Source: Mustelus asterias
Taxonomy: Eukaryota
Direction of reading: 5' to 3'
NCBI RefSeq assembly: GCF_964213995.1
Contig: NW_027590121.1
Coordinates: forward strand, 124,001 to 188,000
DNA length: 64,000 nucleotides
Shown piece by piece: positions 10,885 to 64,000 of the stretch (positions are counted from its first letter, which is position 1; each line of letters starts with the position of its first letter). Both the position numbers and the translations under genes were made by a program. A model generated the notes under the pieces. The model worked only from the letters and a program-made list of their open reading frames with translations. It did no database searches and was not told the origin of the DNA.

Positions 10885-11621
10885 GTGGAGATGCCGGCGT
10901 TGGACTGGGGTAAACACAGTAAGAAGTTTAACAACACCAGGTTAAAGTCCAACAGGTTTATTTGGTAGCAAAAGCCACACAAGCTTTCGGAGCTCCAAGC
11001 CCCTTCTTCAGGTGAGTGGGAATTCTATTCCTAAAAAAGGCATATAAAGACACAGACTCAATTTACAGAATAATGGTTGGAGTGCGAATCCTTACAGCTA
11101 ATCAAGTCTTTCAGAAACAAAACAACGTGAGTGGAGAGAGCATCAAGACAGGCTAAACATATGTGTATTGTCTCCAGACAAAACAGCCAGTGAAACTCTG
11201 CAGGTCCAGGCAACTGTGGGGGTTACAGATAGTGGGACATGAACCCAATATCCCGGTTAAGGCCGTCCTTGTGTGTGCGGAACTTGGCTATCAGTTTCTG
11301 CTCAGCGACTCTGCGCTGTCGTGTGTCGCGAAGGCCGCCTTGGAGAACGCTTACCCGAATATCAGAGGCCGAATGCCCGTGATCCCTGAAGTGCTCCCCA
11401 ACAAGAAGAGAACAGTCTTGCCTGGTGATTGTCGAGCGGTGTTCATTCATCCGTTGTCGCAGCGTCTGCATAGTTTCCCCAATGTACCATGCCTCGGGAC
11501 ATCCTTTCCTGCAGCGTATCAGGTAGACAACGTTGGCCAAGTTGCAAGAGTATGTACCGTGTACCTGGTGGAGGGTGTTCTCACGTGTGATGATGGCATC
11601 TGTGTCAATGATATCTTGATA
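10885..11621 (-). mobile_element. Penelope-like retroelement fragment (GIY-YIG endonuclease and terminal repeat) with a 13-bp TSD
   Basis: ORF 11223-11681 has NVVYLIRC..WYIGET..RQRMNEH..GLNRD; flanked by TCCCCACACTGCT at 10872-10884 and 11622-11634. Confidence 0.88.
10978..11018 (-). ncRNA. Minimal hammerhead ribozyme motif of the Penelope-like element
   Basis: CUGAAGA-A-GGGGCU-UGG-AGCUCC-GAAA-GCUU: conserved core, paired stem II and palindromic AAGCUU. Minimal hammerheads are known in Penelope-like elements. Confidence 0.6.
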
Positions 11622-11625
11622 TCCC

Positions 11626-11665
11626 CACACTGCTCCAGAGATGCATCGGGTCCCAGTCAAAATCC
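11626..11665 (+). other. Displaced 23-RSS of V3
   Basis: CACACTG, 23/24-bp spacer, (G)TCAAAATCC, on the far side of the Penelope insertion. Confidence 0.6.
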
Positions 11666-12164
11666 CACAGCGACAATTCAAGTGACTACGCAGCAGAGGG
11701 CGCTCTCACACTGGTGAAGAGCAGCAATAATTCACTCAGCGGCGTGAGTGCCAGAGGGATCTTTCTCAACCTGCAAATAATACAAAGCACAACAATAGAT
11801 CTTGAGGTCCACTCGTAGAACTATATTATTTTATGATTTCAATTCGCAACATATTAAAAATAGACTCCATAAGTACATCTGTGGAGCCTTAATTGTTTAC
11901 ATGTTAATTGACCTCGTTCCTTTCAATTTATTTTCCCACTCTGTTCCTTGCCACCTCCAGTTTCAACTTTTCACCTGTAATTGCTTTACTTTCTTCCAAG
12001 ATTTAGTTTAACGGTTCAGAACCTAATTTTCCGCTCGGCATCTTAAATCAGTCTGGCAAAACTCCACTGAGCCACAAAAGGAAACTATCAGGCGGGGCCA
12101 ATGAATAACCAAAGATTCTCTCCTCTTCTGTCCACCGCCATCGGAACACTTCTCCGAATAGGCA

Positions 12165-33220: not shown

Positions 33221-33563
33221 TCTAATGTAAATAGAACAGAGACAAAGCACAGAACCATAGTTCCAACCAGACCTTCTCATTCCCACCGTCAACAAACCTC
33301 GGTCCTCTGAAGCCTGTCGGGGGTGAGCTGCATCTTAATGAATGGAAACTTTCCCGGCTGGGTTGCAGACAAACTCCCTGCAGGTACCCATCCAGACGCC
33401 TCTTAAATGTTGCTAATGTGCATGCTTCCAAAACAGCGGCGTGTTCCAGGCACCCACCACCTCCCCCGCAAATAAGAACATAAGAAACAGGAGCAGGAGT
33501 AGGCCATCTAGCCCCTCGAGCCTGCCCCGCCATTCAATAAGATCATGGCTGATCTGACGTGGA

Positions 33564-36500
33564 TCAGTACCACTTACCCGCCTGATCCCCATAACCCTTA
33601 ATTCCCTTACCAATCAGGAATCCATCCATCCGCGCTTTAAACATATTCAGCGAGGTAGCCTCCACCACCTCAGTGGGCAGAGAATTCCAGAGATTCACCA
33701 CCCTCTGGGAGAAGAAGTTCCTCCTCAACTCTGTCTTAAACCGACCCCCCTTTATTTTGAGGCTGTGTCCTCTAGTTTTATCTTCCTTACTAAGTGGAAA
33801 GAATCTCTCCATCTCCACTCTATCCAGCCCACGCATTATCTTATAAGTCTCCATAAGATCCCCCCTCATCCTTCTAAACTCCAACGAGTACAAACCCAAT
33901 CTCCTCAGCCTCTCCTCATAATCCAAACCCCTCATCTCCGGTATCAACCTGGTGAACCTTCTCTGCACTCCCTCCAATGCCAATATATCCTTCCTCATAT
34001 AAGGGGACCAATGCTGCACACAGTATTCCAGCTGCGGCCTCACCAATGCCCTGTACAGGTGCATCAAGACATCCCTGCTTTTATATTCTATCCCCTTCGC
34101 AATATAGGCCAACATCCCATTTGCCTTCTTGATCACCTGTTGTACCTGCAGACTGGGCTTTTGCGTCTCATGCACAAGGACCCCCAGGTCCCTTTGCACG
34201 GTAGCATGTTTTAATTTGTTTCCATTGAGATAATAATCCCATTTGTTATTATTTCCTCCAAAGTGTATAACCTCGCATTTCTCAACGTTATACTCCATTT
34301 GCCATATCCTCGCCCACTCACTCAGCCTGTCCAAATCTCTCTGCAGATCTTCTCCGTCCTCCACACGATTCACTTTTCCACTTATCTTTGTGTCGTCTGC
34401 AAACTTCGTTACCCTACACTCCGTCCCCTCCTCCAGATCATCTATATAAATGGTAAACAGTTGCGGCCCGAGTACCGATCCCTGCGGCACGCCACTAGTT
34501 ACCTTCCTCCAACCGGAAAAACACCCATTTATTCCGACTATTTGCTTCCTGTCGGATAGCCAGTCCCCAATCCACTTTAACACACTACCCCCAACTCCGT
34601 GTGCCCTAATCTTCTTCAGCAGCCTTTTATGGGGCACCTTATCAAACGCCTTTTGGAAATCCAAAAACACCGCATCCACCGGTTCTCCTCCATCAACCGC
34701 CCTAGTCACATCTTCATAAAAATCCAACATGTGCGTCAAGCACACCTTTCCCCTCATGAATCCATGCTGCGTCTGATTGATCGAACCATTTCTATCCAGA
34801 TGCCCTGCTATCTCCTCTTTAATAATGGATTCCAGCATTTTCCCTACTGCAGATGTTAAGCTGACCGGCCTATAGTTACCCGCCTTTTGTCTCCTTCCTT
34901 TTTTAAACAGCGGCGTAACATTAGCCGTTTTCCAATCAACCGGCACTACCCCAGAATGCAACGAGTTTTGATAAATAATCACTAACGCATCCACTATTAC
35001 CTCTGACATTTCTTTCAATACCCTGGGATGCATTCCATCCGGACCCGGGGACTTGTCCACCTTCAGTCCCATTAGTCTACCCAGCACTGCCTCTCTGGTA
35101 ACATTAATTGTATTAAGTATTTCTCCTGCTGCCAACCCTCTATCGTTAATGTTTGGCAAACTATTTGTGTCCTCCACCGTGAAGACCGACACAAAAAACT
35201 TATTTAAAGACTCAGCCATATCCTCATTTCCCACTATTAACTCCCCCCTCTCGTCCTCCAAGGGTCCAACATTCACTCTAGCCACTCTATTCCTTTTTAT
35301 ATATTTATAAAAACTTTTACTATCATTTTTTATATTAATTGCTAGCCTAGCTTCATAGTCTATCCTTCCTTTCTTTATCGCTTTCTTAGTCTCTCTTTGT
35401 TGTTTCTTAAATTTTTCCCAATCACTTGTTTCTCCACTATTTTTGGCCACTCTGTACGCAGCTGTTTTTATTTTAATACTCTCCTTTATTTCCTTCGTTA
35501 TCCACGGCTGGTTCTCCCTTTTCTTACAATCCTTGTTTTTTGCTGGAATATGTTTTTGCTGAGAACTGAGAAGGATCTCCTTAAAAATCCTCCACTGTTC
35601 CTCAGCTATCCTACCTGCCAGCCTGCTCTCCCAGTCTACCTTAGCCAATTCATCCCTCATCCTATCATATTTCCCTCTGTTCAAACAGAGGACACTGGTT
35701 TGGGACCAAACTTTCTCCTCTTCCATCTGAATCAGAAATTCGACCATATTGTGGTCACTAGACCCAAGAGGGTCCTTCACAATAAGATCCTTAATTCTAC
35801 CTACCTCGTTACACAATACCAGATCCAAAATAGCTCGTTCCCTCGTCGGTTCCGTAACATGCTGTTCAAGGAAACTATCCCGACAGCATTCTAAGAACTC
35901 TTCCTCCATTCCACCCTTACCGACTTGAGTCTGCCAGTCAATGTGCATGTTGAAGTCCCCCATGATTATTGCCGTTCCGTTTTTACACGCATCCCTTATC
36001 TGCTTGTTTATAGCCCTCCCTACCTCAACATTATTATTTGGGGGTCTATATACCACACCTACTAGTGTCTTTCTCCCCCTACTATTCCTCATCTCTACCC
36101 ATAATGATTCCACGTTTTGTTCCTCAGAGCCTATGTCATCCCTCAGTACTACCCTGATATTATCTCTTATTAATAGCGCGACCCCACCACCTTTTCCTTC
36201 CTGTCTATCCTTCCTAAACGCCTGATACCCCTGGATATTCATCTCCCAGTCCTGGTCACCTTTCAGCCACGTTTCTGTAATGGCCACCAGATCGTACCCA
36301 CTTGTGCTGATTTGCACCATCAACTCATTTACCTTGTTCCGAATGCTTCGTGCATTCAGGCAAAGTGTCCTTACTCCAGCTTTTATCTGGACCCGCTTTG
36401 ATGAGTCGCGAACACCCTCTCCCTCTACTCCCTTACCTAAATTACCGCCTTCATTCACTTGCACCCTCTCCTCTACCATTAATTTTGTACTTCCCCTTAC

Positions 36501-36569
36501 CCCTGCATCCTCCACCCCATCAATTAGTTCCTTGATCCTAGTCAACTCTTCTAGCTCCCCTCCCCCCAA
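33564..36569 (-). CDS. CR1 ORF2 (APE endonuclease and reverse transcriptase), uninterrupted
   Basis: 1001-codon ORF with [32 protein letters not shown] and FADD motifs. Confidence 0.95.
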   Translation of the reverse strand: MGGGELEELTRIKELIDGVEDAGVRGSTKLMVEERVQVNEGGNLGKGVEGEGVRDSSKRVQIKAGVRTLCLNARSIRNKVNELMVQISTSGYDLVAITETWLKGDQDWEMNIQGYQAFRKDRQEGKGGGVALLIRDNIRVVLRDDIGSEEQNVESLWVEMRNSRGRKTLVGVVYRPPNNNVEVGRAINKQIRDACKNGTAIIMGDFNMHIDWQTQVGKGGMEEEFLECCRDSFLEQHVTEPTRERAILDLVLCNEVGRIKDLIVKDPLGSSDHNMVEFLIQMEEEKVWSQTSVLCLNRGKYDRMRDELAKVDWESRLAGRIAEEQWRIFKEILLSSQQKHIPAKNKDCKKRENQPWITKEIKESIKIKTAAYRVAKNSGETSDWEKFKKQQRETKKAIKKGRIDYEARLAINIKNDSKSFYKYIKRNRVARVNVGPLEDERGELIVGNEDMAESLNKFFVSVFTVEDTNSLPNINDRGLAAGEILNTINVTREAVLGRLMGLKVDKSPGPDGMHPRVLKEMSEVIVDALVIIYQNSLHSGVVPVDWKTANVTPLFKKGRRQKAGNYRPVSLTSAVGKMLESIIKEEIAGHLDRNGSINQTQHGFMRGKVCLTHMLDFYEDVTRAVDGGEPVDAVFLDFQKAFDKVPHKRLLKKIRAHGVGGSVLKWIGDWLSDRKQIVGINGCFSGWRKVTSGVPQGSVLGPQLFTIYIDDLEEGTECRVTKFADDTKISGKVNRVEDGEDLQRDLDRLSEWARIWQMEYNVEKCEVIHFGGNNNKWDYYLNGNKLKHATVQRDLGVLVHETQKPSLQVQQVIKKANGMLAYIAKGIEYKSRDVLMHLYRALVRPQLEYCVQHWSPYMRKDILALEGVQRRFTRLIPEMRGLDYEERLRRLGLYSLEFRRMRGDLMETYKIMRGLDRVEMERFFPLSKEDKTRGHSLKIKGGRFKTELRRNFFSQRVVNLWNSLPTEVVEATSLNMFKARMDGFLIGKGIKGYGDQAGKWY

Positions 36570-36574
36570 CCTAT

Positions 36575-37513
36575 CTAGTTTAAATTCTCCCCAGTAGCCT
36601 TAGCCATCCTACTGGCCAGGATATTGGTCCCCGTGTGATTCAAGTTCCACCCGTTTTTTGTATACAGATCACCCCTGCCCCTAAAGAGGTCCCAATGATC
36701 CAGGAACCTGAATCCCTGCCCCCTGCACCAGTCCCTCAGCCACACATACATCCTCCACCTCACTCCATTCCTGCCCTCACCTTCCCGTGGCACAGGCAGT
36801 AATCCTGAGATTACTACCTTTGCTTTCCTCTTTCTCAGCTGTCTCCCTAATTCCCTGTACTCCCTTTTCATGACCCCTTCTCCCTTCCTACCCACATCAG
36901 CGGTACCAATATGTACCGCTACCTCAGGCTTCTCTCTCTCCCACCTCAGGATTTCCGGGACGCGACTAGCGACATCCTGGATCCCGGCCCCAGGGAGGCA
37001 GACCACCATGCGAGAATCTCGCCTACCTCCGCAGAAACGCCTGTCTGTCCCCTTCACCATCGAGTCCACGATTAATACCGCCTTCCTCCTCTTTTCCTTA
37101 GCCCTCTGAGTTACAGGGCTGGACTCCACTGCGGAGACACGGCCACTGCTGCTTCCCCCAGGCGGGCTGTCCCCCCCAGCAGTACTCAAGCAGGAGTACT
37201 TGTTGTGCAGGGGCAAATCCACCGGGGTGCTCTCAACCACCCTAGCCTTACCCTTCCTGGCCGTCACCCACTTGGCCTCCTCCCGTGGCCCTGGTGTGAC
37301 CACCTGATGATAGCTCTTGTCTATCACCTCCTCATTCTCCCTCATCAGCCTAAGATCCTCGAGCTGCAGTTCCAGCTCCCTAACACGGTCCCTCAGGAAC
37401 CGCAGCTCGACACACCCCTCACAGATGTGGATGTCCGGGAGGCCAGATGCCTCCAGGACCTCCCACATCCTACACTGGGAACAACACACTGGTTTCACAC
37501 TCATACTGGACAC
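36575..37513 (-). CDS. CR1 ORF1 (zinc finger/coiled coil and SGNH esterase-like domain)
   Basis: CxxC...CxxC, leucine-heptad LRDRVRELELQLEDL, LIVDS / CLPGA / HIGT / VISGLLP blocks. Confidence 0.88.
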   Translation of the reverse strand: MSSMSVKPVCCSQCRMWEVLEASGLPDIHICEGCVELRFLRDRVRELELQLEDLRLMRENEEVIDKSYHQVVTPGPREEAKWVTARKGKARVVESTPVDLPLHNKYSCLSTAGGDSPPGGSSSGRVSAVESSPVTQRAKEKRRKAVLIVDSMVKGTDRRFCGGRRDSRMVVCLPGAGIQDVASRVPEILRWEREKPEVAVHIGTADVGRKGEGVMKREYRELGRQLRKRKAKVVISGLLPVPREGEGRNGVRWRMYVWLRDWCRGQGFRFLDHWDLFRGRGDLYTKNGWNLNHTGTNILASRMAKATGENLN

Positions 37514-39324
37514 TTTATGTCAAGTAAGACAGTGAAAAGTTAATAAGAGTGTAAGGAAACAAAAACTCACCCCTGCTCGTCCAAGCCCTGTGAGCCAAAG
37601 CCCTGACAGCTCACTGAACTTCCCACTCACTCTGCTGCCCGCTACGATGCTGCCCGCTGTATACCTTGGTGCGCTTTTAAACCCTCCAAAAACTTCCCCA
37701 GGCCACTCCTGGCCCGACTTCCGGTTTTGAAAAAAACCTCCGATTTTAAACCCAAAATTAACTGAAAAAATAAATAATTAATTACAGTCAGAAAACCCAC
37801 TCTCTTACCCTCAGCCTGCTCCTGGGAACAAATCTCCCTCAAACTTCCCCTTGAACCAGTGCTCCCCTTGTAATTGACACGTCCACCCTGTCTATGCCTC
37901 CAATAATGTTGTAGATCCAATCCAGGTCTTCCCTCAGCCTCTGTATTTCAGTAAAAACAGTCCTAGTCTATTCATACTCCTCATAGCCAACGCCCTCGGG
38001 ATCGTGCAGCATCCTGGGGAACATTCTTTGAACTCTCTCCAAAGCTTCTAAGTCCTTTTGGTCGGACTGGGAGGTCCGGGGTGGATGTAACCCTGGTCTG
38101 TAGTTTATCGTCAGGAAATTCTGAATTGTTAGCGCAAAGTTCTAGAAGAACAGCGCCTCATTAACACTGGACTGCCGACATACGACAACCACAGTGTCCC
38201 AACTCTGACCTGTTCCTCCAGTATCTGCGGGAGCTCTGACACATTTACTGAAGGCAAACAGCTCTCGGAGTTACACTCGCTGCTGATTTTCACAAGGAAA
38301 CAAAGTTGTCCCTTGAAATATCACAGGAGAAGTTCTCTCTGACATCGCCGTGCATGGTTGTGCTATGGAGCCAACACTGCTACAGAGAAGTAACAGATCC
38401 AGAACACAAAAAAAAACATACTCCCAGTATCCAGACAGCGCTCTCACTGCTGAACAGAAGTAAAAATTCCGCTTCCAAATGCAGAGTCACCTGGAACTTT
38501 ACAATAACAACAAAATTCAGGAAAACGTACGGAATTGTACTGGTTAAATCCAGTGCAGTTATGCTGAAATCAGCATTCAGAAATTTACTTCCTTACTTGA
38601 ATTTACTTCTTTTTCCTTCGATGTGTTTTCCGGGACTGTCTGTGACATTGAACAACCCTCTCCATCCCTCTCCCAGTTTCGTGGAACCTTCGACCACGGC
38701 CTGTTAACACGATTTATTTAATCAGAGTGCGTTGCTGGATCAAAGAAAACTTATAAACACTGAATAGATTTCGCAAAGGGGTGACTATCATCTTTAAAAC
38801 AACCCCAAGGAGATTTTCCTCAGTGAGCACTGAGCTTCAGAATGTTTCCTGGAAGCTGGTGTGGTTCTTGTCAACACGAACAATCCGGAATTTTCTGATG
38901 ATAATTTACAGACCAGAGTTACATTCCCCGGCCACCACTTCCTCCTCCCCAGTCTCTGAAAGTCCGGCGATTCCCCTGTCAGGGCACTGACTGTAACCAG
39001 GCTCGGACACTTCTCTTTCAATATCAACCCCAGATCACCACCAACTGGCCACAGAGAACCAGAGACAGACACGCAAGTGAGGCAAGAGCATCCCGGGGGA
39101 AGAGAACAAGTTATTAAGGGCGGGATTTCGAACGGGTGTCTTCTAATGTGATTCTGCGATGATCTGTTTGTCTGATTGAATTCTGAAGTTTGTTTTCTCA
39201 GTCTCTCCTGGGAACAGTTTCATTCGAGGTGAGTTTGGTTTCCTTTCGCTGCACATTGCGGCTGCATCTACTACAATCCTTCACAGACCCCAACAGACAG
39301 CAGCTGCACTCTGCAGTGAAATAC

Positions 39325-48360: not shown

Positions 48361-51078
48361 CAGGGGCCTCCAAACTTTTCAGGACGAGGGCCACGTCGTA
48401 TATTTTACACATTTTCGGGGGCCAAAGAAAAAAAATAGTTTTATAAATGAATGAATAAAATTTAAATGAATGAATAAGTTTTATTTGGATCATCTTTGTA
48501 ATCAGGATGATATGGTTCAGAACAAAAGAGAAATGTGACAATTACAAAGAAACAATGCCATGCTTACACTGAGAGAAGATATATAATGAGTAAAAATATC
48601 AAACATTAGCAAATGCTCTGACGAAATAATCAATTACTTAACTGCAGATGAGAAATGCAGGCTATTCATTTTTTGATTTATTTTATTTACTGAAATTTTA
48701 CAAATGTTTACTTGAAATGAGAATTTGCCCAATTTTGTGGCACACAATGAGAAAAATAAACACAGCCCAAGAAAGAACTTCAGTAAAACAAGGCAAAGAA
48801 ATTCAAAATAAACTTGAACCATTCATGAAGGTCGAACAAAAATAAATTGAGTCTGCACCTTTCTACACAATTCTGGCAATTGGAGTTTTCATTCGTAACC
48901 AACAAATCATGAAGTTTTGCACAAGATTAATGGGAATGATGGAACTGCTTTTTAAATTTCAAAATATTGCTGAACTGAGGTTTCAAGCTTGAAATTTTTG
49001 AAAATGTTCGATGACACAGGTACGTTGTACCAAAAACTGATACAAACCCACAAGCAAATCGCTTCAAATTTGGAAACCGGTCAGGCTGCAAAGATTTATA
49101 AATTTGGATCAGATTTCCTTCTTTATACTTGTGTTTCAGCATGTCATCTGATTGGAGATCAATAATTTCCATTTGAAACTGACTTGGGAGTGTTTCAACA
49201 TTGCAGCCAAATGGATTTTGAAACAGCTTTATTTCATCTGTGTTTCCATCAAGATCAGAACATCGTTCCTGAAATTGGTTTTGCAAGTCCTTAATGATTT
49301 ATGTTGCAAATGAAGAAGGAAATTCTGCTTCAAATTCTTCATGAAATTTTTCACAACATGGAAAATGAACCAAGTTATGAACTTTCAGCTGTCCTTGAAA
49401 TAGCACCAGTTTTGCCCTGAATGCCTTGACATCCGCGAATAGATCACAAATCAATTTGTTTCACCTTGCAACTTCAGATTCAATTGATTCACATGGCCTG
49501 TCACGTCTGCAAAAAATGTCAATTTCCAAAGCCAGTCAGTGTTTGATAAAAGTGGTCCGGGTCGATTCTTCTGTGTGAGAAAGGACCATGATAGAACCTT
49601 TTCACAACTAAGCCATCGAACTGCTGTATAATAAGGCAAGTCACCGAACTCAGAATCAGTTTCTTTCAGAAAATCAGGAAACTGGCGATGATTAAGCCCA
49701 TGAGATAGAATGAAATTCACTGTTGGAACAACAGGTTTCAGAACGCAAGACAGATCCACATATTTTCCACACAATGCTTGTTGATGGATAATGCAATGCA
49801 GAAAAATAGGCTTTGAGAATTCACCAACCTCACAAGCTTTTGTGATTTGTCCAACCAAACCTTTCTTCACCCCAGATATGTTCTTTCCTCCATCAATTGT
49901 CACGCATTGCAGTTTATTCCACTCCAGGTTACATGATAACACAGTTTTTTTGCAATTCTTTGAAGATGTCTTCTCCAGTTACTGTGCTGTGCATGCTATG
50001 CACTGATGCTAATTCTTGTGTCACATTAAATTCACGGTCGACGCCACGGATGAATACTTGGAGTTGTGATGTGTCACACACATCAGTCGATTCATCCAGT
50101 GCGAGAGAATACAACTGAAAATGTCTTGCTTTGTCTGCAATTTGATGAATTATATTGCTTCCTATATCCTCAATTCTACGAGCAACAGTATTTGGTGCAA
50201 GAGCGATGATTTTGAACAGATTTGCTTTTACTGGGCATAACTCTTCCACTGCTTCCATTATACACTCTTTGATGAGATCTCCATCGGTGAATGGCTTTCC
50301 TCTTTTAGCCAACACATAAGCTAGTTTGTAAATGGCCCTGGTTAAAGCTTCATTTTCAGTTATCTTCTGCGTAAAAAAAGTTTGTCGGGAAAGGAACCTG
50401 CTTTGCATTGATTCAAATTTTTCCGAACGCTGTGTTCCTGTGAATTGGGAATAACTTGGTTCATGTTTGGTCTCAAAGTGCCGAAGTACATTGTACTCCT
50501 TCAAAACTGCAACAGTGTCGTTGCATATGGCACACAAGGCTTTATCACCTGCTTGTACAAGGAAGTACTTTACACCCCATTCTTCATTAAACAGGCGGCA
50601 TTCACTGTCCACTTTTCTTTTTTTTTCCTTCCATAGCCGAATTGGTCTGAATTACCGCCATCATTGTCATTGTTCTCGCTCATTTCAGACAGCCGGAGCT
50701 TACGGATTGGATAAAGCAGCTGCCACTCAGTCACTGCAGAGCGGCAATTGGATAACAGATGTCTCAATTGCTGATTCGTATAATGAACTGTCAGTCACAG
50801 GACGGCAGCTCTGATTGGAGAATAGGCCGGTAAAGAGGGCGGGGATTCCTATGGGTCCATCAGACACCGTGCGGAGCGGCAGCAAATGTCCGGCCTGTGG
50901 CTTCCGTCCCCGCGTCCGGATCCTGAGTCAGCGGCGGGGTTCCGGACGCGGGAATGTTTTCGGCAGCGGGAATCCCGTCCCGCCCCACTGGCTGCGGGCC
51001 AGATGTAGCCCGCTGCGGGCCGGATGTGGCCCGCTGCGGGCCGGATGTGGCCCGCGGGCCGTAGTTTGGAGACCCCTG
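48361..51078 (-). mobile_element. hAT DNA transposon (Charlie/SPIN, GTF2IRD2-like transposase), frameshifted
   Basis: TIRs CAGGGGCCTCCAAACT and CAGGGGTCTCCAAACT; ORFs 49929-50612 (CAIC..RHFETKH, SLALDESTD), 49451-49942 (HCIIHQ, VRWLS) and 48927-49286 (FGTTYLC); three GGCCCGCTGCGGGCCGGATGT-type subterminal repeats. Confidence 0.92.
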
Positions 51079-63500: not shown

Positions 63501-64000
63501 ACCTCTCCCTCGCCCTCTCCTCCTTTAACTACTTGAATGCCCTCATTCACTTGCACTCGCTCCCTCTCCTCTACCATTGATTTCGTAATTCCTCTGACCT
63601 CTGCACCCTCCCCCCATAAATTAATTTAAAGCCCTATCTACAGCCCTCGTGATACGATGCGCTAGGACTCTGGTCCCAGCACGGTTCAAACGGAGACCCT
63701 CCCATCTATACAGGTCCCATCTGCCCAAATACTGGTGCCAATGCCACATGAATTCGAAACCATTCCTTCCACTCCAATCCTTGAGCAATGCATTCGTCTT
63801 CTTAATCCTATTAACCCTGCGCCAATTCGCGCGTGGCTCAGGTAGTAATCCAGAGATTACCACCTTGTTGGTTCTGCTTTTAATTTGTTCCCAAGCTCTT
63901 CGTACTCCCTCTGCAGATCCTTAGTTCCTGTTTTGTCTATGTCATTGGCACCTACATGGACCACGACAACTGGATTTTGACTCTCCCACTCCAAATTTCT
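60570..64000 (-). mobile_element. Long CR1 LINE (ORF1 C-terminus and frameshifted ORF2), running off the window end
   Basis: ORFs 63621-63863 (ORF1), 63095-63577, 62720-63079, 62403-62648, 61147-62340 and 60671-61153; (CATAAGAA)n tail. Confidence 0.93.

Follow-up and report, generated by a model that had tools for sequence, protein, structure and literature searches.

Ribosomes very probably reach the second open reading frame (ORF2) of CR1 LINEs through a programmed -1 frameshift on the last two codons of ORF1, an arrangement that would yield a minor fusion protein beside abundant free ORF1 protein. This view is based on sequence comparisons that centre on a young CR1 copy on the minus strand of a 64,000-nucleotide stretch of Mustelus asterias DNA (contig NW_027590121.1; hereafter the window) and that include 205 distinct ORF1/ORF2 junctions of the genome, ten subfamilies and more distant relatives.

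A slippery heptamer at the end of ORF1

Read off the minus strand, ORF1 of this element ends GAG AAT TTA AAC TAG, which places TTTAAAC in the X_XXY_YYZ register, as a preliminary description of the window had stated (Table 1). The tRNA-Leu and tRNA-Asn on UUA AAC would re-pair on UUU AAA, and the slipped ribosome would miss the UAG and continue as L-N-L-D-R; the adjacent stop codon may contribute a pause. The predicted product is an ORF1-linker-endonuclease-reverse transcriptase fusion of 1313 aa in this element. The same description had given the junction peptide as L/F-K-L-D-R, whereas classical two-tRNA slippage predicts G-E-N-L-N-L-D-R. In the ten subfamilies a stop closes the -1 frame one codon (three subfamilies) or five codons (seven) upstream of the heptamer, which leaves no start further 5' from which F-K-L could be read. 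One gene model, from a ray (P0188), runs from the esterase through FKLD into the endonuclease; mutation of the copy or faulty gene modelling may account for it. Another record, P0190, was considered as a natural in-frame fusion and set aside as not relevant, its esterase being C-terminal to a different-looking reverse transcriptase.

Table 1. Features of the CR1 junctions in the window.
Feature	Position	Strand	Remarks
Young full-length CR1 LINE copy	33472..37835	-	5' end approximate
ORF1, 309 aa, C-terminus L-N-stop	36575..37504	-	Pfam Lipase_GDSL_2, E 6e-9
TAA shutting the ORF2 frame, 5 codons 5' of the heptamer	36600..36602	-	no start codon in between
Slippery heptamer U_UUA_AAC, predicted -1 frameshift site	36578..36584	-	register X_XXY_YYZ
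ORF1 stop TAG, adjoining the heptamer on its 3' side	36575..36577	-	
Candidate stimulator: G-rich motif of GGGGG-RD-GGG type, separated from the heptamer by 10 nt and starting at +11	36557..36567	-	
ORF2 frame (-1), 1006 codons counted from the heptamer	33564..36584	-	Pfam Exo_endo_phos, RVT_1
First in-frame AUG (MVEE), codon 36	36477..36479	-	context TTA-AUG-G
3' tail containing a stem-loop and a short terminal repeat	33472..33563	-	
ORF1/ORF2 junction of the other, decayed CR1 copy (A161 subfamily), TTTAAAT TAA	63606..63630	-	

The element carries an APE endonuclease and a reverse transcriptase in ORF2 (Pfam), an esterase-type ORF1 (Pfam Lipase_GDSL_2) with homologues in rays, skates and sharks, and a 3' stem-loop with a short tandem repeat in place of poly(A). 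Its assignment to CR1 was made from these features, without a reverse transcriptase tree, and the junctions look by eye like CR1-labelled ones in the available part of the supplement of PMC13343379. ORF1 consists of a Cys-rich N-terminus, as judged from the alignment, followed by an SGNH esterase domain with altered catalytic motifs, and by analogy with the available part of PMC3905857 it likely contains a coiled coil. ORF2 begins with a linker of about 70 residues, followed by the endonuclease and the reverse transcriptase. The -1 frame is indeed uninterrupted; its length, previously put at 1001 codons, is 1011 codons from stop to stop. The insertion has been multiplied by segmental duplication into at least five copies, this one among them (L001-L005, which have a common 5' flank). 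The earlier designation as an intact CR1 holds for the reading frames and fails for the esterase motifs. GDS has become VDS here; of 30 close copies, 22 have LIGDS and 5 have LIVDS, while 3 were not parsed. DGLHL is replaced by NGWNL in 29 of the 30.

The second CR1 junction of the window does read TTTAAAT TAA at 63630-63621 as described; it can no longer count as an independent variant of the heptamer. The A161 subfamily to which it belongs has AAC, a G7 run and a 161-nt linker as its modal state, and the copy has AAT, G6 and 160 nt, so that its ORF2 falls outside the -1 frame; ORF1 of this copy carries a frameshift as well. It is a decayed member of another subfamily and provides no evidence for a natural U_UUA_AAU site.

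Conservation of the heptamer at synonymous positions

The heptamer was present in 194 of the 205 distinct junctions (TTTAAAC in 186, TTTAAAT in 8), and a stop codon directly followed the heptamer position in 198. Elsewhere in ORF1, an in-register heptamer occurred at 71 of 16,335 upstream codon positions (0.4%, from copies that are not independent), and on that background its presence at the last codon pair by chance is unlikely, even in one element. TTTGAAC in four young copies was considered as a spreading subfamily lacking the site and rejected; the single 5' flank of these copies identifies them as one duplicated insertion.

Ten subfamilies were compared, which have common ancestry and whose ORF1 C-termini are 39-90% identical (median 57%). 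The junction Leu codon was TTA in all ten, against 17 of 144 other Leu codons, and none of the 12 other conserved Leu columns had an invariant codon. Likewise, the junction Asn codon was AAC in all ten, against 22 of 64 elsewhere. The codon before TTA ended in T in every subfamily while encoding six different residues (G, A, R, N, S and T); among control columns, an invariant third position was seen in 1 of 34. The junction thus combines two properties of eukaryotic -1 sites, a heptamer in the zero-frame register and conservation beyond protein constraint. The alignment of junctions that had been proposed as a check found both heptamer and frame kept across divergent subfamilies, and the comparative tests favour the -1 frameshift originally suggested to join ORF1 and ORF2, since heptamer, register and frame are preserved at synonymous sites.

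These data bear on the view that a C-terminal Leu-Asn is needed by the ORF1 protein or merely inherited, the DNA motif being secondary. The terminal Asn is invariant in 24 aligned ORF1 proteins, and in 31 of 48 cases a distance of 22 residues separates LN from the DGxH-type motif before it, as such a constraint would have it. However, synonymous positions are fixed at the junction only, and the LN, GN and KN ends lie anywhere from 20 to 35 residues from that motif, a spread indicating that they track the stop and not the fold. Nor does protein constraint account for the -1 frame, the open linker or the downstream GGG Gly codons. We regard this explanation, already disfavoured, as very improbable.

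Of the distant ORF1 proteins, 86 terminate close to the end of the profile, and in 57 of these the last two residues are LN (46), GN (9) or KN (2), the background of slip-compatible residue pairs being 6.6%; the LN-ending ones include records from turtle, lizard and swallow. The other 29, which belong to a set of proteins not assigned to clades, have different endings. Among six metagenome loci, one had a comparable junction. In this locus, L091, whose ORF1 is 29% identical, the junction reads G_GGA_AAC TAG and the -1 frame is open through to the endonuclease; this change of the heptamer is known from that single DNA locus. L092 and L096 show no such junction, and L093-L095 resemble other elements. 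Scans of viral contigs and prokaryote genomes yielded no further DNA for the GN-ending and amniote lineages. In the available part of the PMC13343379 supplement, which was searched by motif and gives no denominator, 18 of 23 matches to TTTAAAC plus stop lay at the ORF1/ORF2 junction as judged by eye, and the motif is present in published consensus CR1s of crocodilians, lizard, frog, coelacanth and bowfin. Contigs of four runs span the junction, with no heptamer change among the differences listed; contigs of this kind carry no information on translation or splicing.

ORF2 is kept in the -1 frame

Random frame relations between ORF1 and ORF2 had been named as an outcome that would speak against frameshifting. 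The endonuclease was in the -1 frame in 137 of the 187 junctions where it was found, and 121 of these 137 linkers were open. We read the 50 out-of-frame junctions and the 16 in-frame linkers with a stop as probable decay, although as they stand they count against frameshifting. The modal linker corresponds to the -1 frame in all six clusters with a clear mode; clusters 6-8 have no modal linker, and in subfamily B lengths of 343 and 344 nt are equally frequent. The subfamily linkers measure 116, 122, 134, 161, 176, 200, 212 and 344 nt, and thus differ by multiples of three. As the ten representatives were chosen for an open -1 linker, their zero linker stops are partly due to selection. Other decoding routes soon meet stops, within 7-76 codons for zero-frame readthrough and within 2-27 codons for -2 slips. 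In agreement with a -1 site, the downstream frame is open from the heptamer onwards and would need no start of its own.

The absence of an AUG from the first 30 or so ORF2 codons was confirmed, the first being codon 36. The AUG of MVEE had been called conserved, which it is not across subfamilies. An in-frame AUG precedes the endonuclease Asn in 1 of 23 copies of C122, 0 of 10 of D116 and 0 of 1 of J161, and the first Met of C122 and D116 is at codon 143-145. We take this Asn, part of the NAR motif, to correspond to the catalytic Asn of the L1 endonuclease; a PDB sequence search with the endonuclease gave no match. A linker AUG is found in nearly all copies of five subfamilies, including that of the present element, which counts against frameshifting.

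Termination-reinitiation of the L1/SART1 kind would have the ribosome restart at an AUG overlapping the stop, at a linker AUG or at a non-AUG codon, with the G motif tethering the small subunit. This is the accepted route in human L1 and SART1 (PMC2881922, PMC3894237, available parts), it is described as AUG-independent for L1 in the available part of PMC5009743, and a restart at the stop would likewise preserve the -1 frame and the open linker. UAAUG, the SART1-type stop-start with its AUG in the ORF2 frame, occurs at 12 of 205 junctions, namely in L102 and throughout cluster 6 (11 copies), and 66 others have ATT or ATA at the equivalent place. In the remaining copies, however, the codon overlapping the stop is mostly GAT, GAA, GAG, AAT or GTT; the present element has TAGAT and lacks a UAAUG overlap. 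Linker AUGs, where present at all, occupy unrelated positions (codon 14-79); in this element the AUG of MVEE comes after two others, at +57 and +69, that are out of frame. UGGGA, the core of the calicivirus reinitiation signal, is found at +17 in 94 of 205 junctions; the viral signal lies upstream of the stop, whereas this one lies downstream and is missing in clusters 0 and 5 and in the present element. Moreover, reinitiation leaves the strict in-register XXXYYYZ, or a switch to G_GGA_AAC, unexplained. We consider it improbable.

A separate spliced or internally started RNA for ORF2 appears to us scarcely credible. It is favoured only by the resemblance of TTTAAA to a TATA-like box and of CTAG or CTAA to splice and branch signal consensus sequences. 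Such an RNA needs no phase with ORF1 and would leave the AUG-less subfamilies without a start; a pyrimidine tract is absent, and the AG is missing in the TAA subfamilies.

A fixed G motif downstream of the heptamer

The G-rich tract reported to begin 6 nt past the heptamer does have GG at +7; its conserved core lies further downstream, in this element as a G6 run from +11. GGGGG at +11 to +15 is modal in all ten subfamilies, exact in 157 of 205 copies and matched by at least four of five G in 199. In ORF2 of this element, GGG makes up 29 of the 87 Gly codons.

The hairpin or pseudoknot 5-9 nt downstream that is typical of -1 sites was not found: a search for local hairpins gave no stable fold in any of the ten representatives (z -0.26 to +1.28), with a fold model that does not include pseudoknots. 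A G-quadruplex as general stimulator was rejected, being predicted in just 3 of 10 representatives. As a pairing partner for the G tract, the 3' tail was among the best 1% of windows in 7 of 12 elements, one match lying in flanking DNA. Across the ten subfamilies, matched combinations of junction and tail had no advantage in stability over mismatched ones (p 0.82 and 0.76), and this pairing was also rejected; the tail pairs with itself. What the junction does share with protein-stimulated sites of the arterivirus/cardiovirus type is a fixed sequence motif at a matching distance, such motifs lying some 11-14 nt past the shift site (range from the available part of PMC5009743). We tentatively suggest that the unpaired G motif, ten bases downstream, might act as the stimulator through a protein bound at the mRNA entry channel.

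Implications and comparison with known systems

How the second gene of LINEs is translated has been called an open question, with known answers from L1 and SART1 (PMC3894237, available part), and CR1-group elements are the dominant retrotransposons in most vertebrates (PMC13343379, available part). If a gag-pol-like fusion is made, annotated CR1 ORF2 starts would be wrong, and the fusion would explain how an RRM-less ORF1 protein stays with enzyme and RNA. The short junction cassette is within direct reach of a reporter assay, and the G motif, unpaired and constant in position, may represent a type of stimulator that is so far undescribed. A wider picture, which we regard as somewhat doubtful, is of an ancient -1 cassette common to CR1s from sharks to birds and stimulated by a G-rich protein-binding site in place of folded RNA, much as arteriviruses use a C-rich one. 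In that case reverse transcriptase levels would be controlled by a host protein that binds G runs or by the ORF1 protein itself, and the enzyme would arrive fused to the esterase ORF1 protein.

The word 'frameshift' is absent from the available main text of PMC13343379 and PMC3905857, which in that part does not take up the translation of ORF2, and no earlier report of CR1 frameshifting was found in a literature in which older primary papers were partly covered. The vertebrate canonical CR1 of these two publications shares with the present element an esterase ORF1, an ORF2 with APE and reverse transcriptase, and a structured, repeat-bearing 3' tail. A stated precedent exists in the Dictyostelium APE-type LINEs TRE5-A and TRE3-A, said to need a -1 frameshift for ORF2 (PMC5911963, available part), which differ from CR1 in lineage and ORF1. 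L1 and SART1 resemble CR1 in having a bicistronic LINE RNA with ORF2 dependent on ORF1 translation (PMC2881922, PMC3894237), and UAAUG, a SART1-type feature, is also seen in one CR1 cluster here; however, L1 and SART1 yield separate proteins, and a start codon at the stop is missing in most of our CR1 junctions.

According to the available part of PMC5009743, U_UUA_AAC and G_GGA_AAC are both among the most shift-prone heptamers. Coronavirus and retrovirus -1 sites use identical heptamers and the same logic of fusing a structural protein to a polymerase (PMC5009743). An RNA structure usually follows them at 5-9 nt, whereas none is predicted in CR1, where the zero-frame stop abuts the heptamer. 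In the arterivirus PRRSV, as in CR1, a short motif without base pairing lies some 11 nt past the shift site (PMC5009743); the viral motif is C-rich, is bound by nsp1beta with PCBP and directs mainly -2 frameshifting, whereas the CR1 motif is G-rich and ORF2 lies in the -1 frame.

The ORF1-ORF2 junction of the window element

On the minus strand, ORF1 of the window element, a young full-length CR1 LINE, ends GAG AAT TTA AAC TAG. The preliminary description had placed a slippery heptamer, U_UUA_AAC (TTTAAAC), in X_XXY_YYZ register immediately before this stop, and the sequence agrees. It had also described ORF2 as continuous in the -1 frame from the heptamer, which is correct, except that 1006 codons without a stop were counted rather than 1001; the APE endonuclease and RT domains lie inside this frame. 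The first ~30 codons of ORF2 indeed lack an AUG, the earliest being codon 36, which has a weak context and is preceded by two out-of-frame AUGs. Heptamers in register occupy 71 of 16,335 ORF1 codon positions (about 0.4%).

Features of the window, with positions counted within it
Feature	Position	Strand	Remarks
Window element (CR1)	33472..37835	minus	ATTTG at both ends (37835 and 33472)
ORF1	37504-36575	minus	309 aa, SGNH esterase domain
Esterase region of ORF1	37070-36630	minus	no DGxH motif
T at -25, A at -24	36602-36600	minus	upstream of heptamer
Heptamer	36584-36578	minus	TTTAAAC
Junction of second CR1	63606..63630	minus	subfamily A161
ORF	49451-50651		resembles hAT-type transposase fragment (by eye)
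ORF	11223-11705		resembles GIY-YIG (Penelope-like) endonuclease fragment (by eye)

The junction reads TTTAAAC TAG in 26 of 30 close copies and TTTGAAC TAG in the other four. These four have a single 5' flank in common and therefore go back to one insertion with subsequent duplication; four duplicates exist of the window copy as well. An array of ~20-nt units precedes many close copies (L010, L011, L015, L017, L019, L021-L025, L027 and L030) and is absent before the window copy, while at another locus, L014, a 5' UTR unit is tandemly repeated. An older CR1-like sequence surrounds the window element, which lies in its 3' part. The ATTTG at both ends of the window element may be a target duplication, although other copies have it at the 5' end too. 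In the esterase, NGWNL is found in 29 of 30 copies of the young subfamily, which lacks DGxH, and the window insertion additionally carries VDS in place of GDS. Judged from these sequences, esterase activity was apparently not needed for the recent spread of this subfamily.

Junction survey in the Mustelus asterias genome

Eight queries of the 3.68-Gb genome yielded 240 loci (the best 30 per query; for protein queries, the best 30 of tens of thousands of candidates). Together with the window these gave 243 junction matches and 206 distinct sequences, which need not be independent insertions, and 205 remained after removal of one spurious match. The heptamer position was occupied by TTTAAAC in 186 and by TTTAAAT in 8; the remaining 11 had other sequences, 4 of them apparently mis-anchored. 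A random frame relation would count against frameshifting; among the 187 junctions for which the endonuclease was located, however, 137 had it in the -1 frame (121 open), as opposed to 27 and 23 in the remaining frames. The modal linker between heptamer and endonuclease was in the -1 frame in all six clusters with a clear mode, three small or old clusters having none.

On the basis of cluster and length of the -1 linker, which ranges from 116 to 344 nt, we distinguished ten subfamilies, one being a single copy and one tied at 343/344 nt; their comparison used open-linker copies and thus a selected sample. The second CR1 in the window, put forward earlier as a further heptamer case, lies where claimed, but it is a decayed member of a subfamily with AAC, G7 and a linker of 161 nt.

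Conservation beyond protein constraint

ORF1 is 39-90% identical among the ten subfamilies (median 57%). Its final Leu is TTA in all ten, compared with 17 of 144 remaining Leu codons, and none of the 12 other conserved Leu columns has an invariant codon. AAC is used at the junction in 10/10 subfamilies versus 22/64 elsewhere. The codon before TTA has T as its third base in every subfamily, although six amino acids are encoded, whereas third positions were invariant in 1 of 34 control columns (9 of 121 counting two-fold sites too). Since the -1 frame is shut 1 or 5 codons upstream of the heptamer and the short gaps shown hold no start codon, what is conserved cannot be the F-K-L encoded in that frame. 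An ordinary CR1 element carries a real, strongly conserved recoding-type signal.

Further upstream, T at -25 (10/10) and A at -24 (9/10) create a tendency to a -1-frame stop five codons ahead of the heptamer, and G at -10 is invariant. Junctions of subfamilies C122, G116, H176 and J161 (the number gives the linker length; e.g. loci L101, L062, L033 and L132) read GAG GGT TTA AAC, so that one codon further upstream another heptamer stands in register, G_GGU_UUA, the site of the yeast L-A virus.

Junctions beyond this genome

Named ORF1 relatives came from rays, skates and sharks. An ORF1 profile search supplied 150 representatives, of which 86 finished near the profile end, 23 extended and 41 were fragments. 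Of the 86, 57 ended in LN, GN or KN, with one exception 20-35 residues past a DGxH-type motif; LN-ending proteins with a named source were from turtle, lizard and swallow. Another ORF1, P0024, is 50% identical to that of the window element; its NCBI record calls it an SGNH hydrolase of Pseudomonas aeruginosa, but it is probably fish DNA contamination.

The junction comparison asked for in the preliminary description came out in its favour: heptamer and -1 frame are kept in the ten subfamilies, and, in the rows seen of the PMC13343379 supplement (400 characters each, judged by eye, no denominator), TTTAAAC plus stop stands at the apparent junction in 18 of 23 matches. We read their abbreviations as alligator, crocodile, bearded dragon, bullfrog, coelacanth, bowfin, a halosaur, elephant shark, sharks and rays; birds are represented by a single row seen, whose noisy consensus lacks the C of the heptamer. 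A metagenome contig, L091 (ORF1 29% identical), ends CAG GGA AAC TAG, with the -1 frame open up to the endonuclease: a different heptamer in the same pattern and register.

Routes to ORF2

Judging from sequence, the CR1 junction very probably works by -1 frameshifting. The majority of ribosomes would terminate at UAG and release the ORF1 protein, while a minority would slip on U_UUA_AAC, decode L-N-L-D-R and yield a 1313-aa fusion. Readthrough and -2 slips reach a stop within 76 codons in all ten subfamilies. The main rival is reinitiation after ORF1 termination, the mechanism generally accepted for L1 and SART1 (PMC3894237, PMC2881922, PMC5009743). An in-frame UAAUG is indeed present at 12 of the 205 junctions, and ATT or ATA occupies the same place in 66; however, most junctions, including that of the window element, have no start codon at the stop. 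An AUG precedes the endonuclease Asn, which we take to be catalytic as is its L1 counterpart, in 1 of 23 C122 and 0 of 10 D116 copies, the earliest Met of both subfamilies lying ~95 codons inside the domain. Moreover, reinitiation leaves both the heptamer and its change in L091 unaccounted for. Heptamer and UAAUG, with its AUG in the ORF2 frame, occur together at L031, L032, L035, L038, L044, L047, L049, L051, L054, L055, L060 and L102, and 5 of the 8 U_UUA_AAU variants fall in the UAAUG cluster. This lineage might use both frameshifting and the stop-start route.

The G motif and comparison with known systems

In 10/10 subfamilies GGGGG is modal at +11 to +15, and in 9/10 the same holds for GGG at +18 to +20; the G positions kept include -1-frame third positions. 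The 10-nt spacer is identical in the three crocodilian rows seen in the PMC13343379 supplement, whereas L091 has merely a looser G-rich stretch at this place. No stable local fold was predicted near the junction, and a quadruplex was predicted in only 3 of 10 subfamily representatives. Pairing of the G motif with the 3' tail was rejected, as it failed a matched-versus-mismatched test. In all likelihood the recoding signal is a -1 frameshift site; the precise spacing of its G motif is explained by none of these structures.

Our full-text literature searches, judged for most papers by listing and opening of the abstract, brought up no description of CR1 frameshifting; older papers, including the first full CR1 descriptions, lay outside their reach and may hold an earlier remark on the overlap. 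There is precedent among LINEs, as a -1 frameshift is stated to be needed in Dictyostelium TRE5-A and TRE3-A (PMC5911963). According to the review PMC5009743, structural stimulators lie 5-9 nt from the slip site and those of arteriviruses and cardioviruses 11-14 nt, the PRRSV site having a PCBP-bound motif 11 nt 3'. The spacing of the CR1 G motif resembles that of the arterivirus and cardiovirus group and not that of structural stimulators, and by this analogy a protein bound to the G motif would be the favoured candidate stimulator.
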